Shown: positions 7,406 through 55,318 of the stretch, in pieces
Layout: each line of letters begins with the position of its first letter
Numbering within the stretch: the first letter of the stretch is position 1
Assembly: GCA_038231275.1 (NCBI GenBank)
Contig: JBBRLQ010000016.1
Span: 128,001 to 192,000, forward strand
Reading direction: 5' to 3'
Origin: Polyangiales bacterium
GTDB taxonomy: Bacteria; Myxococcota_A; Polyangia; Polyangiales; Polyangiaceae
DNA: 64,000 bases
Notes under the pieces: generated by a model
Seen by the model: the letters and a program-made list of their open reading frames with translations, nothing else
Database searches by the model: none
What the model was told of the DNA's origin: nothing
Made by a program: the position numbers and the translations under genes

Positions 7406-8437
7406 GTGCGCGCCGCGCCCGCTCTCGTCCCCGGGCTCGCGCTCGTCGCGGTGCTTGTCATGGCGCCGGCGCGCGCGTATGCAGAGACGAGCCCGACCGT
7501 GCACGTTGACTACGCCGCGCCGTCCGGGTGTCCGGGCGAGCGCGCGTTCGTCGATGAGCTCGTGGCGCGAGCTCCGCGCGCGCGCGTCGCGGTGCCGAGC
7601 GAGCCGGCGCGAACGTTGATCGTGCGCGTCGCGGCGCGCCAGGGTCATTTCACCGGTCGCCTGAACGTGCGCGCGCTCGACGGAGGCGACACGGAGCGCG
7701 AGCTCGGCGCGGACAGCTGCGCGGAGCTCGTTTCGGCGCTCGCCCTCGTCGCGGCGGTGGCGGTGGACCCTACGGTCGCTTCGACCGCGACCGCGACCTC
7801 GACCCCGACCTCGACCTCGACCCCGACCTCGACCCCGACCCCGACCCCGACTCCGACTCCGACTCCGACCCCGACTCCGACTCCGACCCCGACTCCGACT
7901 CCGACCCTGACTCCGACTCCGACTCCGCATCTCTTTCATGTCCGCGTCGTGGTGGGGAGCGAGGCGGTCTCGGGTCCATTGCCCGATGTGGTCGTCGGGT
8001 TTCCCGTCGTGAGCCTCGACGTCGACAAGGAGACGACCGATCTCCTGCGCCCCGCCTTTCGCGCGAGGTTCGTGACGGCGAGCGACGACGCGGCGAGCGC
8101 GCGGTTCGTGTGGACGGCGGGGAGCCTCGAGGGGTGTCCGATCGGGGGGGTGCTGGGGCCGGTGGGCGCCGCGGCGTGCGCGCGAGGCGAGGCGGGCGCG
8201 CTGTATGGGCGAGGAGCGGTCGGGCCGAGCCGGGACCGAACGACGCCCTGGGTTGCCCTCGGCCCGGTGGGGCGCGCGCGCGTCGAGATCGTCGGGAACC
8301 TCGGGCTCGAAATCGAAGGGAGCCTATTTTTCCCGGTCGTTCGCGATCGGTTCACCCTCGAGTCGGGGGCGACGGTCTTTCGACCGCCGGCCGTCGGCTG
8401 GGCCGTGGGAGGTGGGGCGTCCGTGATCATTTGGTGA
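7406..8437 (+). CDS. Secreted protein: N-terminal Cys-pair domain, Pro-Thr linker, putative OM beta-barrel (ECF module 1, gene 1)
   Basis: Signal peptide, (PT)n linker, amphipathic beta-strands ending in Trp; paralogous to 51616-52629. Confidence 0.7.
   Translation: MRAAPALVPGLALVAVLVMAPARAYAETSPTVHVDYAAPSGCPGERAFVDELVARAPRARVAVPSEPARTLIVRVAARQGHFTGRLNVRALDGGDTERELGADSCAELVSALALVAAVAVDPTVASTATATSTPTSTSTPTSTPTPTPTPTPTPTPTPTPTPTPTPTLTPTPTPHLFHVRVVVGSEAVSGPLPDVVVGFPVVSLDVDKETTDLLRPAFRARFVTASDDAASARFVWTAGSLEGCPIGGVLGPVGAAACARGEAGALYGRGAVGPSRDRTTPWVALGPVGRARVEIVGNLGLEIEGSLFFPVVRDRFTLESGATVFRPPAVGWAVGGGASVIIW
7785..7927 (+). repeat. Hexamer tandem repeat (CCGACY-like)n encoding Thr-Pro linker
   Basis: Direct reading of ccgact/ccgacc units. 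Confidence 0.95.
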
Positions 8438-8479
8438 TCGTGAGGTGCGCGGCCGGACATTTCGGCGGCAGGGCGTAGG

Positions 8480-9115
8480 ATGGGAAACGTGGCGACGTTG
8501 CAGCCGGGCGGTTTCGGAGCGCCCATCGACATCGGGTCGTCCGAGGAGAGCTCAGCGCCGCCCGTGTCGCGCGCGCAGGTGCGACTGCGCGGTGACGCCG
8601 AGGTGCGGTTTCGCGCGATGGTCGACGGGCATTTCGATTTCATTTGGCGATCGCTCCGCGGCCTCGGCGTTCCCTCCGCCAACGCCGACGACGCAGCCCA
8701 GCAGGTGTTCCTCGTCGCCGCGCAGAAACTGGAGCTCATCGCCGCCGGCAGCGAGCGGAGCTTCCTCTTCTCGACAGCGCGCGGGATCGCTGCGAACGCG
8801 CGGCGATCGCGCGCGCGCAGCCGCGAGGTCCCGGAGGAAGGCGCCCTCGCAGAGCCGGTGGACGGCGCACCCGATCCCGAGCAAGAGGCGGCGCGTGCGC
8901 AGGCGCGGCGCGTCCTCGAGGGAATCCTCGAGGGGCTGTCCGACGATCTACGGAGCGTGTTCGTCCTCTTCGAGCTCGAAGGAATGACGACGATGCAGAT
9001 GGCGGAGCTGCTCGGCGTGCCGATGGGCACGGTGGCGTCGCGGCTCCGTCGCGCGCGCGAGGAGTTTCAGGCCGCGACCAAGCGATTCCAAGCGAGCCGA
9101 GGGGGACGCACATGA
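8480..9115 (+). CDS. ECF sigma-70 family factor
   Basis: Region 2 DFIWRSLRGLGV..ADDAAQQVFL; region 4 LRSVFVLFELEGMT..MAELLGVPMGTVASRLRRAR. Confidence 0.95.
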   Translation: MGNVATLQPGGFGAPIDIGSSEESSAPPVSRAQVRLRGDAEVRFRAMVDGHFDFIWRSLRGLGVPSANADDAAQQVFLVAAQKLELIAAGSERSFLFSTARGIAANARRSRARSREVPEEGALAEPVDGAPDPEQEAARAQARRVLEGILEGLSDDLRSVFVLFELEGMTTMQMAELLGVPMGTVASRLRRAREEFQAATKRFQASRGGRT

Positions 9116-9927
9116 CCGAGCCGCGACGACTCCTCGACGAAGGCGGCGACTTCGATCGCGCCCTCCTCCACGCGTGGAAAGACGAGCAGCCATCGCCGCG
9201 CGCGCGCGCGGAGCTGTTCGCGCTGGCTGGGCTCGCGGCGACAGGCGCGGCGGCCGTAGGTGCAGCAGGTGCTGCAGGTGCGGCAGGTGCGGCAGGTGCG
9301 GCCGGCTCGATCGCGCCGAAGGCCGCGGCGGGCGGGCTCGCGCTGGCCAAATGGATCCTGGTCGGCGCCGCTGCGCTCGGCGCGACGAGCGCCCTGGTCG
9401 TCTACGCGCGCCGCGACGCCGCAACGCCGCCCCTCGCCGCGTCCACCGTGGCATCGCCGTCGCCGATCCCCACGGTCACGCCTGCGCCTCTCGTCTCGCC
9501 CGTCAGCACCGTTCCTCCCGCCAACGTACCCGCTCCCCTCGCCACTCCGTCGACCCCCGCGACTGCCGTGGCCACCGCGACCGCCGCCGTCACTGCGAAG
9601 ACGACGACGAAGCCGCGCGACACGGCCGCCAGCACAGGCTCTCTCGCCGATCAGATCGCCGCAATCGATCGCGCGCGCGCCGCGCTCGAAGCCGGTGACG
9701 CGACGGACGCGCTCCGCCTCGTCGACGACTACGAGGCGCGCTTCGGAGGCAACGGCGCCGCGTTTCAACAAGAGGCCGACGTCATTCGCATGGACGCGCT
9801 CGTCCGGCAGGGTGATGGCGCAAAGGCGACGCGCCTCGGCACGCGCTTCCTCGCGGCGCATCCGCAGAGCCCTCACGCGGGTCACGTGCGCGCGCTCGTC
9901 GAAAGCCAGGGCGGCGCCGCGCCGTGA
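9112..9927 (+). CDS. Putative anti-sigma factor (TM, Pro/Thr linker, TPR-like C-terminus)
   Basis: ATGA overlap with sigma; short cytoplasmic N-terminus, TM helix, helical domain ending FLAAHPQSPH. Confidence 0.75.
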   Translation: MTEPRRLLDEGGDFDRALLHAWKDEQPSPRARAELFALAGLAATGAAAVGAAGAAGAAGAAGAAGSIAPKAAAGGLALAKWILVGAAALGATSALVVYARRDAATPPLAASTVASPSPIPTVTPAPLVSPVSTVPPANVPAPLATPSTPATAVATATAAVTAKTTTKPRDTAASTGSLADQIAAIDRARAALEAGDATDALRLVDDYEARFGGNGAAFQQEADVIRMDALVRQGDGAKATRLGTRFLAAHPQSPHAGHVRALVESQGGAAP

Positions 9928-10454
9928 GCCGCGCCGTCTGGGCCGCGCTCGTGCTCTCGCCCTTCGCGTCCCTCGCGCCGTTCGCGCTCGCCTGCGGTAC
10001 CGACGTGAGCCTCGGCGGGACGCCAGACGCCGCCGCGCCCGACGTCGTAACGGTCGATCTCTCGCTCGACTGCCAGCCTTGCCTCACGCAGACCGACTGC
10101 ACGCCGTCCGCGACCTGCGGCGTGTTCGCCGGCGACTCGTTCTGCGCGACCGCGTGCCCGGAAGGCACGGGCTGCGAGCGCGACGAGACGTGCGACGCCA
10201 TCACGACCGTCGGCGGAGCGGCGATCAAGGCGTGCGTCCCCAACGGTGGCGTGTGCGCGCCGGAGATCGGACCGGCGCTCGACGGAGCGATCCTCGATCG
10301 CTGCGGCGCGCTCGACGGCCCCACCGTCGTCACGTCGGCGTGCCACTCCTGCGGCAAGTACTCGAGCGACTGTCAGGGCAACGGCTGCTATGGCGGCTGG
10401 TGGTGCAACACGAGCACCCGCAAGTGTCAGAGGCCGCCGAAGACGTGCCCGTGA
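9924..10454 (+). CDS. Cys-rich lipoprotein (ECF module 1, gene 4)
   Basis: GTGA overlap; lipobox ALAC-GTDVSLGG; many Cys. Confidence 0.8.
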   Translation: MSRAVWAALVLSPFASLAPFALACGTDVSLGGTPDAAAPDVVTVDLSLDCQPCLTQTDCTPSATCGVFAGDSFCATACPEGTGCERDETCDAITTVGGAAIKACVPNGGVCAPEIGPALDGAILDRCGALDGPTVVTSACHSCGKYSSDCQGNGCYGGWWCNTSTRKCQRPPKTCP

Positions 10455-10688: not shown

Positions 10689-11645
10689 ATGCGCCTCGCG
10701 CGAAACGTCGTCGCCTTCGCGATCGTGCTCACGGGCGCGGCGTGCGGCCTCGACCTCACGGGCACGGCAAACCTCTCGACCGACGACGACGGCGGGACGA
10801 CGGGCACGGACGGTTCCATGGACGCGCCCGGCCACGCCGACGCGACGAGCGGAACGGACGGCTCCTCTGCGCGTGACACCGCCAGCGACACGGCCACGCT
10901 CCCCGACACCGCGCCGCCGGTCGACGCGGGCATCGACACGGGCGTCGACGCGTGCGGTCCGATCGTCGTCATCCGCGACGACTTCGGCAGCGGCATCGGC
11001 GCCGCGTGGACCAAGGTCGGCTCTGCGACTGCGACGACCGCCGGAGGCGCGAACGGACCGTTCGTCACGTTGACGCCGCTGCAAGGCGGACAACAGGGCG
11101 AGCTCCTCTATGCGACCGCGCAACCGCTCGGGACGTTCCGCGTCGACTTCCAGTTCTACATGAGCACGGGCGGCCAGAGCCCCGTCGCCGACGGCCTCAC
11201 GTTCGCGTGGTTCGATCGCGCGACCGGCTTCGGCACCGCCGTCGGCGGCAAGGGACTTGGCCTCCCGAGGACGACCGGCGGCTACGCCGTCACGTTCGAC
11301 ACCTGGCAGAATACCGACATCAACGATCCGTCGAGCCCGTACTTCGGCGTCCTGAAGCTCGACTCCGCCAAAGACCCCGGCACCTTCGACTGGCACGGCG
11401 GAAGCTCGTCCCAGCTTCCGCTCATCGCGGGCGTATGGCACACGGCGCAGATCGTGGTCGTCGCCGGCAACGTTCGACTCATCGTGGACACGATCCCGTT
11501 CTTGAGCGGAATCACGACGACGCCCATCGTGAGCGGCGCGTTCGGCTTCACGGCAGCGACGGGAGGCGGTAACCCGATCGGGGTCGCGCTCGACAACGTC
11601 GTCTTCGCGATTCCGAATCCCGCGTGCCCGAGCGCGTTCCCTTGA
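10689..11645 (+). CDS. Lipoprotein with L-type (legume-like) lectin domain
   Basis: Lipobox GAAC; ADGLTFAW, YAVTFDTWQN, GFTAATGG motifs. Confidence 0.85.
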   Translation: MRLARNVVAFAIVLTGAACGLDLTGTANLSTDDDGGTTGTDGSMDAPGHADATSGTDGSSARDTASDTATLPDTAPPVDAGIDTGVDACGPIVVIRDDFGSGIGAAWTKVGSATATTAGGANGPFVTLTPLQGGQQGELLYATAQPLGTFRVDFQFYMSTGGQSPVADGLTFAWFDRATGFGTAVGGKGLGLPRTTGGYAVTFDTWQNTDINDPSSPYFGVLKLDSAKDPGTFDWHGGSSSQLPLIAGVWHTAQIVVVAGNVRLIVDTIPFLSGITTTPIVSGAFGFTAATGGGNPIGVALDNVVFAIPNPACPSAFP

Positions 11646-48588: not shown

Positions 48589-49191
48589 TCACCGTGTGCG
48601 GAACCGAACGGCCTTCGCGGTGAGGGTCGTCCCCTTGCCTTCGCCCCCCTCGCCGTGCTCGAACTCGACCTCGACGAGGAGATCGGCGTGGGCGGAGCGC
48701 GCTTTGTCGAGCAGCACCTGGAACGCGTGCTCTTCGCCGCCCATGTCGCCCTTGACCTCGAGCTTGCTGATCACGTCGTACGCGCGCCCCTTGACGAGAT
48801 CGTTGCAGCGCACGGCCATGCCGGCCAGGTGCGTCGGCTCCTTTCCGCCCTCGCCGTGCTCGAACTCGACATGGATGACGGCGTCGGCGCCGAGCTTTGC
48901 GGCGCGGCGCTTCAGCGTCTCCAGCGCCTGGTCGGTGCTCTCCATTTTCCTGTGCACGTCGACCGGACCGAGCGCCTCCACGGGGCAGCCGATGTCGGCG
49001 GTCTGCATGACCTTGATCTTCGCGGCCCTCGCGACCGTCACCGGATCGTCGGGCACGCTCTCGTCTTCGTCGTGATCGGCGCCCGCGCTGCCCGCGCCAT
49101 GCTCGTCGCCCTCGGTCGCCGCCGGCTTTTGCGGCTGGCATCCGACCATGACCATCGAGCACGCGAGCAGCGAGATGAGAATCCGTCGCAT
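48589..49191 (-). CDS. Lipoprotein with two YbjQ-like (heavy-metal-binding-like) domains
   Basis: LKRRAAKLGADAVIHVEFEHGEGG and KARSAHADLLVEVEFEHGEGG repeats. Confidence 0.75.
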   Translation of the reverse strand: MRRILISLLACSMVMVGCQPQKPAATEGDEHGAGSAGADHDEDESVPDDPVTVARAAKIKVMQTADIGCPVEALGPVDVHRKMESTDQALETLKRRAAKLGADAVIHVEFEHGEGGKEPTHLAGMAVRCNDLVKGRAYDVISKLEVKGDMGGEEHAFQVLLDKARSAHADLLVEVEFEHGEGGEGKGTTLTAKAVRFRTR

Positions 49192-49212
49192 GGCAGTCTC
49201 CTTCTTTTCGTT

Positions 49213-49665
49213 TCAATCGACCGGGTACGGAACGGCGGGCAGGAACTTCACGGCGAGTCCCGACAAGTGCGTCGGCTCGCCCTGCGCCTCCCCGTGGTGG
49301 AACTCGACGCCGACGACAGCGTCCGCGCCGAGGCGTGCGGCCTTCGTCTGGAGCGCATGGAGCGCGCCGTCGTGCTTGCCCATCTCTTCGTGCGCGTCGA
49401 CGACCCCGACGACCTGTGCAGGGCGATCGAGGTGCGTCGATTGGAGGATCAAGACGCGCGACGGATCGCCAGCGGCGCGGCCGGCGTTGGACGGCGAGCT
49501 CGCCTCGCTCCCCTGCATGTGTCCCGTCGTTTGGTAGACGGTCACCGGATACGACAGGTTCTGCGAGTACGAGTACGACGACTGGGGGTGAAACTCCGGG
49601 TGGTACTCGCTCTGACACGCCGCCAGCGGCAACGAGAGGAGAGCGGTCAGGAGGAGCTGCTTCAC
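49213..49665 (-). CDS. Lipoprotein with one YbjQ-like domain
   Basis: Lipobox LAAC; LQTKAARLGADAVVGVEFHHGE..GEPTHLSGLAV; GTG start with GGGAG RBS. Confidence 0.75.
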   Translation of the reverse strand: MKQLLLTALLSLPLAACQSEYHPEFHPQSSYSYSQNLSYPVTVYQTTGHMQGSEASSPSNAGRAAGDPSRVLILQSTHLDRPAQVVGVVDAHEEMGKHDGALHALQTKAARLGADAVVGVEFHHGEAQGEPTHLSGLAVKFLPAVPYPVD

Positions 49666-49872
49666 GATGGCCACTCCCGGTCCCCTCTTCACGCGCCATG
49701 CCACGCGTCGCGCACGCGCAACTCCGCTGGCGTGCGCGGCGCGGAGAGGATCGAGCGGGACAAGACGCGTCGCACGCGGGCGTCGACTCAGGCGCCGAGG
49801 TCGTCACGCGGCTCACCGAGCGCGTCGAAGCGCCTAATTTCGGCTGGCACGTCGCGTGGAAGAGCCGTCGGC

Positions 49873-50595: not shown

Positions 50596-51414
50596 ATGCG
50601 CCTCGCGCAGACTCTGATCGCCCTCGCGGTGCTCGTCGTGGGGTGCAAGGGGAGCGAGAGCGCGGGGAAGCCGGCGACGCCAAGCGCGTCGGCTCCTGCC
50701 TCGAGCGCAACGGCGAGCACGAGCGCGAACGCGAACGCGATGGCGGCGACGTCCGCGAGCGCGATCGCCAGCGGGGACGCCGGCGCGAGGATCGCGCGCA
50801 CGACGGGCGGAGTCGCCGGAGCGGCCGAGACGCGCTTCGTCTTCGACGCGGACGCGGCCGGCGCGGCTCCGGCAGGCTTCACGTCGCTTCGAACGGGGAG
50901 CGGGCGCGTGGGGAGTTGGATCGTGCGCGCCGAAGGAGATGGCCCCGGCGCGCCGATGATCCTCGCGCAGACGGACGCGGATCCCACCGACAATCGCTTC
51001 CCGATGCTCCTCGCCGACGCGCCCGTCCTCGCGGACGTCCAGGTGTCCGTCCGATGCAAACCCGTGTCGGGGAAGGTCGACCAAGCGTGCGGCGTCGTGT
51101 GCCGCGCGAAGGGCGCCGACGACTACTACCTCGCGCGCGCAAACGCGCTCGAGGGCAACGTCCGCCTCTACGTGGTCGAGCACGGCAAGCGCCGCCAGCT
51201 CGAAAGCTACTCGGGCGCAGTCACGGGTGGGCAGTGGCACAAGCTCGCGCTCTGGTGCCACGGCGCCGGGCTCAGCGTCTACTGGGACGAGGCGCGGGTG
51301 CTGCGACAGGCCGACAAGACGTTCACCGAAGCCGGCAAGGTCGGGCTTTGGACCAAGGCAGACTCGGTCACCTACTTCGACGCCCTCGTCGTTCGCGAGA
51401 TGTCGAACATGTAG
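50596..51414 (+). CDS. Lipoprotein with ConA-like (DUF1080-like) domain
   Basis: Lipobox VVGC; DQACGVV.R..DDYYLARANALEGNV, GKVGLWTKADSVTYFD. Confidence 0.75.
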   Translation: MRLAQTLIALAVLVVGCKGSESAGKPATPSASAPASSATASTSANANAMAATSASAIASGDAGARIARTTGGVAGAAETRFVFDADAAGAAPAGFTSLRTGSGRVGSWIVRAEGDGPGAPMILAQTDADPTDNRFPMLLADAPVLADVQVSVRCKPVSGKVDQACGVVCRAKGADDYYLARANALEGNVRLYVVEHGKRRQLESYSGAVTGGQWHKLALWCHGAGLSVYWDEARVLRQADKTFTEAGKVGLWTKADSVTYFDALVVREMSNM

Positions 51415-51615
51415 CGCTCCGGGCCCCGGCGGCCGTCGTCGGTCGCCCACGTGGGCATGTAAACGACGACCCAGTCCAAGTGAACATGACCGTCCACAGC
51501 GCGTGCCTCGCCACGCCTCGCGAGGCGCGAACGGATGACGCCCGGAGGATCCACTCCACCTCGTGAGGTGTTGAATCCCTTGACTGACCCGGATGCGTGA
51601 ACTAACCGCCGTCCC

Positions 51616-52629
51616 GTGGGATCTCGCGCCGCGTCGTCCCTCGCGCTGGCCTGCTTCGTCGTCGTGAGCGCCGCAACGACCGACGCGCGCGCCGACGGCG
51701 ACGACGTCGCCCTCGACTGGGTCGCGCCCTCCGAGTGCGCGACCGGCGCGCACGTTGCTGCAGAAATCGCGCGCCTTCGTGCGGGGCCACCACGCGTGCG
51801 GGTTCGAGCACACGCGCGCATCACGCGCGACGCGAACGCGTGGTCGTTGGAGCTGACGACGGAGATCGACGGCGCCGAGCACAAGCGCGCATTCCAGGCG
51901 GCGACCTGCGGAGAGCTCTCGGACGCGGCGGCGACGGTGCTCGCGCTCGAAACCGCGGGCGAGCCGACCCCAACCCCGACCCCGACCCCGACCCCAACTC
52001 CGACGCCGACGCCGACCCCGACCCCGACCCCGACTCCGACTCCGACCCCGACGCCGACGCCGACGCCGACCCCGACTCCGACGCCGACTCCGACTCCGAC
52101 GCCGACCCCGACGCCGACTCGTCCCTTTGCTGCGGGGGTTGGCGTCGTTGGAACGGGAGGCGCGGTCGGTCCCTTCGCGCTCGGCGCCGCAATCGTGGGA
52201 GCGTGGACGCCGGGCCACGAGCGTGCGGAAATCATGGCCTCGTACAGCCCCCCGACCCGTGTAGATCGCACCGATCTCTCCATCGGCGGCAACTTCAGCC
52301 TCCTCCTCTTCGGCGTCGCGGCGTGCCACGTCTTCGGAGACGGCGTCTTCCGCGCGGGGCCGTGCGCCGGGATCGAAGCTGGGCGGATCGGCGCGGTGGG
52401 CGTCGGCAACGCAGTGCAGACTCCGGAGCCGACGGGCGGCGCATGGGTCGCGCCGAAAGCGTCGGCCCTCGCGCTGGTCTCGCTGGGGCGCTTCGCGCTC
52501 CGAATCGAAGGAGGCGCCGTCATCCCGCTCGTTCGAAATACCTTCACGATTACAGGGGTCGACCAGGTTTACCGCCCCGCCGCAGTGGTTGCCAGAGGGG
52601 GATTCGGCGTCGAGGTCGCGTTTCCGTGA
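51616..52629 (+). CDS. Secreted protein: N-terminal Cys-pair domain, Pro-Thr linker, putative OM beta-barrel (ECF module 2, gene 1)
   Basis: Paralog of 7406-8437: WVAPSEC, TCGELSDA, (PT)n, terminal GFGVEVAF. Confidence 0.72.
   Translation: MGSRAASSLALACFVVVSAATTDARADGDDVALDWVAPSECATGAHVAAEIARLRAGPPRVRVRAHARITRDANAWSLELTTEIDGAEHKRAFQAATCGELSDAAATVLALETAGEPTPTPTPTPTPTPTPTPTPTPTPTPTPTPTPTPTPTPTPTPTPTPTPTPTPTRPFAAGVGVVGTGGAVGPFALGAAIVGAWTPGHERAEIMASYSPPTRVDRTDLSIGGNFSLLLFGVAACHVFGDGVFRAGPCAGIEAGRIGAVGVGNAVQTPEPTGGAWVAPKASALALVSLGRFALRIEGGAVIPLVRNTFTITGVDQVYRPAAVVARGGFGVEVAFP
51964..52119 (+). repeat. Hexamer tandem repeat encoding (PT)n
   Basis: ccgacc/ccgact/ccgacg units. Confidence 0.95.
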
Positions 52630-52685
52630 CGACAATCGTTCCGCCGGCCACTCAACGAGAGTTGGGACCTTCGCTTTCCCCATCC

Positions 52686-53285
52686 ATGACCCTTCGCTTG
52701 GTAGACGCCCCCAACGTCCGAGATGCGGCGCACGAGACGGCCGACGGCGTCGTCGCATTTGCAGATCTGTACGACGCGCACGCCAGCTTCGTCTTTCGCG
52801 TCGTCCTTCGCCTCGGCGTAGGGCGCGACGCCGTCGAAGACGTCGTGCAGGAGATCTTCCTCGTCGTTCATCGTCGGCTCGAAGAGTTCGAGCAGCGTTC
52901 GAAGATCCGCACGTGGATCTACGGAATCGCCGTTCGCGTGGCGCGCACGTATCGGCGAACGCTGGCGCGGAAGCACTTGAATCCCGAGAATGGCCGCGAA
53001 GAGCTCGAATCGCACGTGTTGGCGGACGACGCGACGCGCGCGCCGGATGCAGTGCTCGAAAAGGCGCAGGCGGCCGAGCTCGTCGTGACGATCCTGGAAG
53101 AGCTCGACGACGAGCTGCGTGAAGTGTTCGTTCTCGCGGAGCTCGAAGAAATGACGGCGATCGAGATGGGCGAGGTGCTCGGCGTGAGCGCGAACACGGT
53201 GGCATCGCGCTTGCGATTGGCGCGACGCGATTTCGATCGCGCGCTCACCCGAGCGCGTGCCCGCGACGAATGGAGGATGCGGTGA
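52686..53285 (+). CDS. ECF sigma-70 family factor
   Basis: LYDAHASFVFRVVLRLGV..VEDVVQEIFL..RTWIYGIA; LREVFVLAELEEMT..TVASRLRLAR; alternative GTG start at 52626 overlaps upstream stop. Confidence 0.95.
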   Translation: MTLRLVDAPNVRDAAHETADGVVAFADLYDAHASFVFRVVLRLGVGRDAVEDVVQEIFLVVHRRLEEFEQRSKIRTWIYGIAVRVARTYRRTLARKHLNPENGREELESHVLADDATRAPDAVLEKAQAAELVVTILEELDDELREVFVLAELEEMTAIEMGEVLGVSANTVASRLRLARRDFDRALTRARARDEWRMR

Positions 53286-54145
53286 GCGATCTGAGCCGAG
53301 AGGCCCGCGCCCTGCTCTCGCGCGCAAAGAGCTCCGATCACGGCCTCCCCGACGCCGCGTCGCTCGCGCGCACGCGAGGCAGCGTCCTGCGTCGTGCGGG
53401 AATGGGCGCCGCGGCGGGCGTAGCGACCGCGGCCGCGAGCACGGCGACGAAGGCGGCCCCCGTCCTCGTCGCAGCAGGCGCGACGGGAGTGTCTGTTTCG
53501 GTGACTGCGAAGGTCGTGCTCCTCGCGGCGCTCCTGACGGGCGGCGCGGTGGCCGCCGTATCGATTCCGAGCGCTCCGACGCCGAGCGCGCGGGTGGCGG
53601 TCGCAGTGGCTCCACACGGGCCAAGCCGAGCGCCCGAGTCGAAGCAAACGGCCGCACCGCCGCCGGTGGCGACTCCGAGCCCGACTCCGACGCCGACTCC
53701 GACGCCGACTCCGACGCCGACGCCGGCTCCGACTCCGGCTCCGACTCCGGCTCCGACTCCGGCTCCGACTCCGGCTCCGACTCCGGCTCCGACTCCGACG
53801 CCGACTCCCGTTCCGCCCGCGTCTCCGGTTTTTTCGACGGCGTCCGATCCGGCGCCTCTTCCGCCGCCCCCGCCCCCTCTTCCGGGCCTGTCGTCGGACA
53901 TCGCGCACCTTCGCGCGTCGCAAGCCGCGCTCGCGGCCGGAGACGCGCGAACGGCGGAGCACGAAGCGGCGCGCGTGTCAGCGACTGGGCCGCTCGCAGA
54001 AGAGCGTGACGGCATGCTCACCCTCGCGGGGTGCGCTCTAGGAAGCGACGCAGAGGCCGCGCGCCAGGGGACGGATTTCGTGCAGAGGCATCCGTCGTCC
54101 GCGCTCGTGCCGCGCGTGCGTTCGGCGTGCGGCAATTCGATTTGA
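53282..54145 (+). CDS. Putative anti-sigma factor (TM, PT/PA linker, TPR-like C-terminus)
   Basis: GTGA overlap with sigma; ends [18 protein letters not shown], paralogous to 9112-9927. Confidence 0.75.
53670..53810 (+). repeat. Tandem 6/12-bp repeat encoding (PT)n(PAPT)n
   Basis: ccgactccgacg and ccgactccggct units. Confidence 0.95.
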
Positions 54146-54191
54146 TCACGAAACGGCGCGTAGCGGTCACCCACGTGACGAAGAGGTGATC

Positions 54192-54872
54192 ATGACCATC
54201 CGAGCTTTTCATCGCGTATTCTTGACGGCCGCCGCAACCGCAGCGGTGCTCGTGGCGTGCGGAGGCGACATCGCCATTGGTTCTTCGCAGAACCCGCTCG
54301 TCGGCGACGCGTGCGCCGTCTCCGAATGCGGAGCTACGCCGTTCACGTGCAGCAACGGCGCGGCCACCGACGTCGCATGTACGCGTCATCAAGGCGCATG
54401 CACGTGGTCGGGGAAATGCCCCGGCGATTGTCCACCCGCGAAGTGCGCGGACGAAGCCGTGGGATGCGCAGGCAGCTCCGCGGACGGCGGGCCTATCACT
54501 CCGCTTTTCCCGACCAACTTGCGTTGCGCCCCCAGCGCGTTCCGCGGCGTCGGCTCGGCGCCCGCCGATCAGTGCGAGATCCTCTTCGAATGCGCGCCGA
54601 AGCCCGTCGTCACGTGCGCGGCATCGGCATGCGCGAACCAAGGTTTCGCGTGTTTGACGGGGCCCGCAACGAACCTGCGATGCGTGCCCGATCCGAACGC
54701 CGGTGTAGGGTCCAACCCGGTGGGCGCCTGCCTGCTCCTCGGCGATTGCCCGTCGGGCAACGATGCGTCCGCGGGACCCCCGACGCCACCACCGACGTCA
54801 GCGCGGGAAACGGCAACGACGCCTCCGTCGACGCCGGACGCTGACTGGAGCGAAGCGCTGCGGTCGCTGTGA
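54192..54872 (+). CDS. Cys-rich lipoprotein with three internal repeats (ECF module 2, gene 4); probable frameshift near 3' end
   Basis: Lipobox LVAC-GGDIAIGS; three six-Cys repeats, two with TNLRC.P...GVGS.P. Confidence 0.8.
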   Translation: MTIRAFHRVFLTAAATAAVLVACGGDIAIGSSQNPLVGDACAVSECGATPFTCSNGAATDVACTRHQGACTWSGKCPGDCPPAKCADEAVGCAGSSADGGPITPLFPTNLRCAPSAFRGVGSAPADQCEILFECAPKPVVTCAASACANQGFACLTGPATNLRCVPDPNAGVGSNPVGACLLLGDCPSGNDASAGPPTPPPTSARETATTPPSTPDADWSEALRSL

Positions 54873-54880
54873 CCGCGTAC

Positions 54881-55318
54881 TCAGTGCGATCCGACGAGCG
54901 CAGTCGCGATGAACAGGGCCGAACAAATCCACACGGCCGCGGCGGTGATCACGAGCGAGATCCTCACCGCGGGGCGCTGCAGGAATGGGGTCGACGGGAA
55001 GACGGACCGATACACGACCGATGCCTCGGGCTCGGGCGACTCCACTGCGAGCCAGAACTCGTCGAAGCGGCGCTGCGACTCCTGGTCGCGCGGCGGAGCG
55101 ACCGTGACGCGGACATGGATCTCGGTGAGGGCCGCGTCGTTTTCGTCGTCGGCGAAGAGGTCTTGCGTTCCCGCGGCCATGGCGCCGGTCGAATCCGGCA
55201 CGAGCTCGAGGTGCGGCCGCGCGCGCCAGGACACGCTCGACGCAGCGGCGTCCACGTCGACGATTTCGAGGGGGAAACGTGGAAGAACCTTGCGAGAATC
55301 GTCGGCGGTAGCGGGCAC
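54881..55318 (-). CDS. Hypothetical protein with C-terminal TM helix
   Basis: Acidic low-complexity region then ISLVITAAAVWICSALFIATALV; start uncertain. Confidence 0.5.
   Translation of the reverse strand: MPATADDSRKVLPRFPLEIVDVDAAASSVSWRARPHLELVPDSTGAMAAGTQDLFADDENDAALTEIHVRVTVAPPRDQESQRRFDEFWLAVESPEPEASVVYRSVFPSTPFLQRPAVRISLVITAAAVWICSALFIATALVGSH

Follow-up and report, generated by a model that had tools for sequence, protein, structure and literature searches.

The window analysed here is a stretch of 64,000 nucleotides from a Polyangiales bacterium, positions C16:128001-192000 of contig C16 in a genome of 9.28 Mb and 69% GC. It carries two copies of a gene module built around a sigma factor of the extracytoplasmic function (ECF) type. 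Sequence comparison established the gene set and its spread, a short tag next to the lipid-bearing cysteine of the accompanying lipoproteins together with its specificity for the module, and the variety of the protein bodies behind this tag. The genome was found to possess 15 sets of gene 1, sigma gene and predicted anti-sigma gene in that order by iterated searches of 79,308 reading frames. We tentatively favor, at somewhat less than even confidence, the view that a docked surface lipoprotein is the input of a switch made of barrel, anti-sigma and sigma factor. The second copy in the window, on which this analysis is centered, has the following features, given along with the first copy.

51616..52629, + strand: gene 1 (337 aa), with signal peptide, two-Cys periplasmic domain, Pro-Thr linker and predicted 8-stranded outer membrane (OM) barrel.
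51694..51960, + strand: N-terminal domain (N-domain) of gene 1, beta-alpha-beta-beta-beta-alpha, with an invariant Cys pair (from alignment; model pLDDT, the predicted local distance difference test score, 94).
52114..52626, + strand: predicted 8-stranded barrel, in which the outer strands are long, loop 4 forms a hairpin and two Cys are conserved as a pair (from model, fold matches and conservation).
52627..52653, + strand: promoter-like bipartite site before the sigma gene; it overlaps gene 1's stop codon (score 14.0).
52686..53285, + strand: ECF sigma factor, likely start ATG 52686; the longest frame begins at GTG 52626.
53270..54145, + strand: predicted anti-sigma factor, in which a short helical N-terminal part and a single hydrophobic helix are followed by a Pro-Thr linker and a C-terminal domain resembling tetratricopeptide repeats (TPR-like).
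53873-54142, + strand: the TPR-like domain of the predicted anti-sigma factor.
54146..54172, + strand: second promoter-like site, before the lipoprotein gene; it shares its pattern with 52627-52653 (kept in ortholog L059).
54186..54872, + strand: lipoprotein with tag, three six-Cys repeats and Pro/Thr tail; ATG 54192 is the likely start and the lipid Cys is at 54258.
54258..54281, + strand: post-lipid tag CGGDIAIG, whose kept part is hydrophobic-x-hydrophobic-Gly.
54312..54749, + strand: the three six-Cys repeats (54312-54419, 54429-54593, 54615-54749).
7406..10454, + strand: copy 1 of the module, with a sigma factor of another subclade, an unrelated lipoprotein body and the same tag.

The first-pass annotation had described copy 2 as a four-gene module (barrel gene 1, ECF sigma, anti-sigma-like gene, lipoprotein) arranged like that at 7406-10454, and a check of the open reading frames (ORFs) bore out both the four frames and the matching order. 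The motifs it quoted were recovered in both copies, namely APSxC, CxELxxA, a barrel Cys pair preceding EAG and a Trp in gene 1, and LxxxIAxxxxxxAALxAGDA and FxxxHPxSxxxxxVR in the anti-sigma protein. The two lipoproteins start with CGGDIAIG and CGTDVSLG after the lipid site as reported and are unrelated beyond this start (best BLASTP E 0.32, no significant similarity), and Cys spacing confirmed the three six-Cys repeats of copy 2. The view that three genes form a conserved scaffold while the lipoprotein varies is supported. The anti-sigma and lipoprotein genes of copy 2 (53270-54872) have weak codon bias and both were missed by a codon-trained gene caller; therefore all-frame ORFs were used in the profile searches, and automated annotation of this part of the window may drop the two genes. 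No RNA holder is listed for the module region. Directly 3' of copy 1, at 10689-11645, lies a lipoprotein with a weak legume-lectin-like domain which does not match the tag pattern.

Apart from the 15 sets, the genome has two further sigma/anti-sigma pairs of other layout. An N-domain profile found matches in 16 of 20 relatives (114 in total) and in 13 of 120 genomes sampled within the phylum, for which just 43 candidates were scored per genome. From the relatives 100 of the 114 matches were taken, 14 near contig ends being left out, and these loci included 73 complete three-gene sets, 70 of them with at least 600 bases downstream; in 41 of the 70 a lipoprotein was detected automatically directly after the anti-sigma gene. 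The lipoprotein is not always the fourth gene, as had been supposed, being upstream, divergent or fifth in some modules; in this genome tagged lipoproteins are also divergent (C12, C5) or fifth (C23). Genome search for the tag uncovered a lipoprotein at the start of contig C5 (C5:1-987, L145) as the fourth gene that the C60 module had lacked: this contig start shares 10 bases with the reverse end of C60 (C60:1-200, L015), and the gene stands fourth in orthologs L049 and L050. As read by eye, ten of the 15 sets have a neighbor matching a looser form of the tag, in four others the neighbor shows an altered tag, with Ala or Pro in place of Gly or with Phe-Gly, and the C2 set has none. In C2-type modules (C2:173752-174381, L001; L052; L061) the fourth gene encodes a secreted 210-residue barrel-like protein and no tagged lipoprotein is situated nearby. 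Rearranged sets in the order sigma, anti-sigma, barrel gene, lipoprotein were observed at C36:64189-67620 (L014), L229 and L230, and the C36 set possesses a zinc-motif anti-sigma, an N-domain without Cys and a tag-like start ending in Ala. A pattern scan of genome contigs with the sigma factor returned mostly unrelated ECFs and one module, L146 (Nannocystaceae).

In the tag, Cys is followed by V/I/L-x-V/I/L-Gly, and this Gly mostly falls at +8 to +10. The post-lipid peptide noted in the first-pass annotation is real and specific to the module, but the pattern proposed for it, CGxD(V/I)x(L/I)G, is too narrow and its Asp is not kept. The strict Asp motif was rejected, being found in none of the 31 module lipoproteins outside the genus (31 of the 57 modules there), and only one of six homologs of the copy 2 lipoprotein has the Asp. 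The expected rarity in unrelated lipoproteins was confirmed, as none of 1150 non-module lipoproteins of the genome match the strict pattern. The wider pattern C-x(2,5)-[VIL]-x-[VIL]-G was found in 12/31 module lipoproteins outside the genus against 3/1150 non-module ones, or 9/15 against 3/203 among Cys-rich proteins alone, and C-x(3,8)-[VIL]-G in 22/31 against 106/1150; these widened patterns were set after the module starts had been viewed, so that the 31 are not fully held out, and the background is one genome under a permissive lipoprotein predictor, and related sequences are not independent of one another. In held-out distant genomes (21 further loci, 14 complete in-order sets, ten with a lipoprotein next) the looser pattern occurs in 9 of the 10 next-gene lipoproteins, two of the nine being orthologs and the second of two nearby Cys being taken for L146.

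A profile of 57 pairs gave V/L/I in 95% followed by Gly in 87%, V/L/I in 73% two residues earlier and Asp three residues ahead of the last hydrophobic in 24%, percentages which are biased upward since the 57 were chosen for tag-like starts (left out were L046, L048, L067, L073, L110, L134 and L135 and the genome sets C2, C5, C6 and C9). The hydrophobic-Gly pair is conserved while signal peptides and residues past the Gly are not. The tag persists in all well-supported clades of the sigma tree, in which the barrels average about 21% identity, and in distant families, and it goes with the module even where the lipoprotein gene is upstream, divergent or fifth. A second post-lipid motif, roughly C-x-A-hydrophobic-hydrophobic-G-hydrophobic, was seen at C1:309480-310901 and C1:536259-537422 and in more genes on C1, C26 and C52; the gene at C1:309480 stands after one for a protein ending in a helix-hairpin tail.

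The copy 2 lipoprotein has no Pfam family and no usable Atlas match. Its six homologs show 46-57% identity, and ortholog L059 keeps 18/18 repeat Cys, whose spacings are 4,6,9,6,5, then 4,6,19,15,5, then 4,6,9,15,5. ATG 54192 is favored as its start by the promoter-like site, the ribosome-binding site and the ortholog. Module lipoprotein bodies fall in 40 families among 57 and range from 84 to 731 residues; the part behind the tag, earlier described as variable and Cys-rich, is indeed variable and is Cys-rich in just 32/57. Pfam matches were obtained for 11 of 50 scanned bodies, including STIG1, RCC1, DUF1554, Dickkopf, Kazal, GH8, PD40 and DUF4215, which we take to be types typical of extracellular proteins. 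The same body families recur across different well-supported sigma-tree clades, which is consistent with bodies having been exchanged, or recruited repeatedly, behind one tag. Orthologous modules of the same genus retain orthologous lipoprotein bodies, so the fourth genes are not distributed randomly across modules. None of the 58 listed module lipoproteins has Lys at +2, the inner-membrane signal of M. xanthus lipoproteins (PMC3222651).

Gene 1 has no named family in Pfam, NCBIfam or Atlas. Its C-terminal domain is predicted to be an 8-stranded OmpA-class barrel: the model of this domain (171 residues) has pLDDT 91 and a predicted template modeling score (pTM) of 0.84, and it matches OmpA with a template modeling (TM) score of 0.69-0.76 and also Ail, NspA, OmpX and OmpW. 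The barrel showed no TonB-receptor family match, and its model has no plug domain. The predicted N-domain fold matched HPF, the TolB N-domain and an LptE-like fold, which are tied at Z 7-7.7 and hence possibly reflect just a common arrangement; STN was not among the fold matches (Z under 8), and gene 1 gave no STN match in Pfam. Gene 1 look-alike clusters are mostly from Myxococcota, and the best named homolog is LZC95_49350 of Pendulispora brunnea, a cultured relative.

The sigma factor contains regions 2 and 4 only, with Sigma70_r2 and Sigma70_r4_2 of Pfam and TIGR02937 above cut-off, and ATG 52686 is favored as its start on the same three grounds as that of the lipoprotein (promoter-like site, ribosome-binding site, ortholog). 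In the sigma tree the two window copies are placed in different clades. The third gene is predicted from position and layout to encode the anti-sigma factor. It matched no family in Pfam, NCBIfam or Atlas and no anti-sigma family of Pfam, and a FecR match was absent at E 0.1 in both copies. The layout, in which a short N-terminal segment leads into one membrane helix and then a periplasmic domain and the gene overlaps the sigma gene, was read from sequence in 15 paralogs, of which that in copy 1 gave weak TPR_14 and BamD matches. DdvS/DdvA combines a zinc-binding anti-sigma domain with a periplasmic TPR-CHAT protease domain. An assignment to this type was rejected, as the N-terminal part of the anti-sigma protein has no Cys/His zinc motif and no CHAT match was found.

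Predicted promoter-like sites connect the lipoprotein gene with the sigma factor. Compared with sites that follow 1475 other stop codons, the site at 52627-52653 has p 0.005, and it is kept in ortholog L059. The pattern common to it and 54146-54172 has three matches in the genome, two of them being these defining sites; further targets of the copy 2 sigma were not found, one extra match comparing with 0-3 at other spacer lengths. The TGA stop of gene 1 often doubles as part of the -35-like element. This element has two subtypes, T[GC]ACG[GA]A and GTGATC, and each of the window copies shows a different one. A matrix was trained on 57 other-genus modules with seeds picked by eye and with regions after other stop codons as background. 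In relatives it gave p<0.05 for 6/24 spaced vs 1/17 coupled lipoprotein genes, and two divergent lipoprotein genes scored p 0.022 and 0.005. Site pairs within a module agree in C12, C17 and C23, and the fifth gene of C23 did not score with the matrix. Since a promoter-like motif precedes the sigma gene and several lipoprotein genes, the lipoprotein gene is likely a target of the module sigma. For the copy 2 lipoprotein the matrix scored 54175-54201 best, a site which extends over the start codon and which the ortholog does not keep; therefore 54146-54172 was preferred. Upstream of gene 1, bipartite-motif enumeration revealed no convincing motif and a TTGACT-17-TAACCG look-alike was left aside; a sigma-70 scan gave no site in 51400-55000.

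According to the favored reading, the tag would form a beta-strand that docks on the outer face of this predicted barrel of eight strands, and the periplasmic N-domain of gene 1 would grip the TPR-like domain of the predicted anti-sigma factor. A change at the surface lipoprotein would then release the ECF sigma, and the freed sigma would transcribe its own sigma and anti-sigma genes along with the lipoprotein gene, giving feedback. The surface location, the two contacts, the sensing and the sigma release are what we infer. Docking is suggested by covariation of gene 1 with the tag, by a lean of conserved residues to the outer face, by the extracellular type of the bodies and by the precedent of CglB. 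Tag similarity tracks the barrel with r 0.16 and the N-domain with r 0.17, compared with 0.11 for sigma and 0.04 for TPR, and 16 of the 25 most conserved barrel positions belong to the outer face, to which 77 of 171 positions were allotted when the sides were set by hand along the strands of the model. A contact of N-domain and TPR is suggested by one partial correlation, in which the N-domain tracks TPR with a partial Mantel r of 0.26 after control for sigma and barrel. Co-folding of the barrel with the first 32 lipoprotein residues, from a 57-row barrel alignment plus 57 lipoprotein rows in the same order and without controls, gave an interface score ipSAE of 0.00 in both runs with the partner fold uncertain, which speaks neither for nor against binding. 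A bolder form of this reading, possible but more doubtful, is a plug-in receptor system in which the eight-residue lipid-proximal tag would dock nearly any extracellular domain on a pore-less mini-barrel wired to its own sigma, without TonB energy or transport, so that myxobacteria would gain up to fifteen or more parallel sensors by body swap.

Two caspase-like-plus-barrel genes stand beside ECF and anti-sigma-like genes at C7:68202-71985 and C9:179720-182576, and the lipoprotein at the C7 locus starts with a different peptide. The tail of these caspase-barrel operons was not matched by the barrel profile (E 0.08 and 1), and the barrel-like genes on C26 and C36 gave just marginal matches, so that they do not help to assign the tag to barrel or N-domain.

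Several observations weigh against docking on the barrel and an input role. Tag covariation is weak, confounded by kinship and alike for barrel and N-domain (partial r 0.12 vs 0.13), and mean barrel conservation is nearly the same throughout (1.09 on the outer side, 0.98 in the middle, 1.00 on the periplasmic side). A downstream lipoprotein was not detected automatically in 29 of the 70 modules; on inspection by hand about 6 had been missed downstream and about 7 were upstream or divergent tagged lipoproteins, and the remaining roughly half showed no tagged lipoprotein in the 7.5-kb locus. The gene 1 barrel of C2-type modules keeps its outer-loop residues although the fourth gene is barrel-like and not a lipoprotein. 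Cys-rich tagged lipoproteins without nearby module occur at C8:16617-17426, at C3:187948-188517 and in a C20 gene near 84400-85300; they have no clear promoter-like site and are possible clients in trans. The promoter matrix reached p<0.05 in just 7/15 sigma-upstream and 6/15 post-anti-sigma regions of the genome.

As the lipoprotein gene looks like a sigma target, the lipoprotein may be output cargo as much as sensor. It could be an adhesin, lectin or enzyme which the barrel displays via the tag, the switch sensing barrel occupancy or a general envelope cue and not the ligand of the body, an explanation we hold to be rather unlikely. It would account for the promoter-like site common to lipoprotein and sigma genes, divergent ones included (p 0.022, 0.005), the agreement of site pairs in the three modules mentioned above, the enzyme-like folds among the bodies (GH8, nucleoside hydrolase) and the recurrence of body families on different sigma clades. 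However, cell-surface signaling receptors are also targets of their own sigma (PMC11637429), and therefore regulation does not decide the role of the lipoprotein; and fifteen parallel switches with one cognate lipoprotein each would fit separate inputs better than one cue.

The tag could otherwise be a sorting or export signal for another machine, or bind the N-domain of gene 1, without docking on the outer face of the barrel. The last hydrophobic residue is at +7 in 30/57, and Ala at +7 directs FibA export in M. xanthus (PMC3222651); the equal covariation of the tag with N-domain and barrel and the few tagged lipoproteins without nearby module also fit. A general export signal would, however, be expected to be common in Cys-rich lipoproteins and was found in 3/203, which disfavors sorting, and extracellular-looking bodies fit poorly with a periplasmic site; this explanation is considered unlikely. 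The tag might also be a relic, with promoter, signal peptide and first residues staying with the module on exchange of the body and with no selection on contact. It does look as if bodies had been swapped behind the tag, with promoter and tag moving together; but what is conserved is the hydrophobic-Gly pair, and neither the signal peptides nor the residues that follow the Gly, and the tag persists across all well-supported sigma clades and distant families. A relic is considered quite improbable. Docked surface lipoproteins as input remain our preferred reading.

The module is reminiscent of known systems. SusC/SusD and RcsF-OmpA pair a barrel with a surface lipoprotein as receptor or sensor, SusC being a TonB-dependent transporter with one lipoprotein fold and RcsF signaling to a phosphorelay. 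Unlike both, the module has about 40 body families behind one tag, and SusD matches were found in none of the 50 scanned module lipoproteins. RcsF-OmpA is mentioned in PMC9946355, where OM barrels, GltA/B/H of Myxococcus xanthus, are described to retain a surface lipoprotein, CglB, arriving by another route; that is a motility complex without sigma/anti-sigma, and the accessible part of the paper reports no shared N-terminal tag. As in FecA/FecR/FecI and Pseudomonas Fox cell-surface signaling (PMC11637429), the module combines an OM barrel bearing an extra N-terminal periplasmic domain, a membrane anti-sigma with periplasmic C-terminal domain and an ECF sigma, with likely autoregulation. It differs from FecA/FecR/FecI in its 8-stranded barrel without plug in the model and without TonB-receptor match in Pfam, in the TPR-like anti-sigma domain without FecR match, in the separate tagged lipoprotein as likely input and in the promoter-like site after the barrel gene and not before it. 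Dma1/Das1, a dual membrane-spanning anti-sigma of Bacteroidota (PMC10927553), similarly has an eight-stranded barrel (predicted here), a disordered linker and ECF sigma control, and Dma1 gives a precedent for an 8-stranded barrel wired to an anti-sigma. Dma1 is a single polypeptide, whereas barrel and anti-sigma are separate genes in 15/15 genome sets and 73 relative sets; the module moreover has facing periplasmic domains, a lipoprotein partner and a different phylum. In PMC7826278, ECF210 is from Sorangium, Sandaracinus and Chondromyces and ECF35 includes one-helix anti-sigmas, some with periplasmic TPR; unlike the module, these were described in its accessible part without barrel or lipoprotein context, the comparison being by description only. 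The module works like cell-surface signaling or a split Dma1 and belongs to neither. The module and its tag are undescribed in the full-text literature searched, most subscription papers being outside the search.

Elsewhere in the window, at 48589-49704 on the minus strand, lie two neighboring paralogous small exported proteins with internal repeats, which share the motif G-A-D-A-V-x-x-V-E-F-x-H-G-E.

The sigma switches known to work across the envelope rely either on a TonB-dependent transporter or on one double-spanning protein. If the favored reading is true, this family shows signaling through a small barrel with an interchangeable lipoprotein. Through the module, 15 of about 90 sigma-like ORFs in the genome are given a role, and the tag offers a short, testable handle on the retention or display of some lipoproteins at the surface of myxobacteria. 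If portable, it would be a part for surface display and synthetic surface-to-gene sensors.

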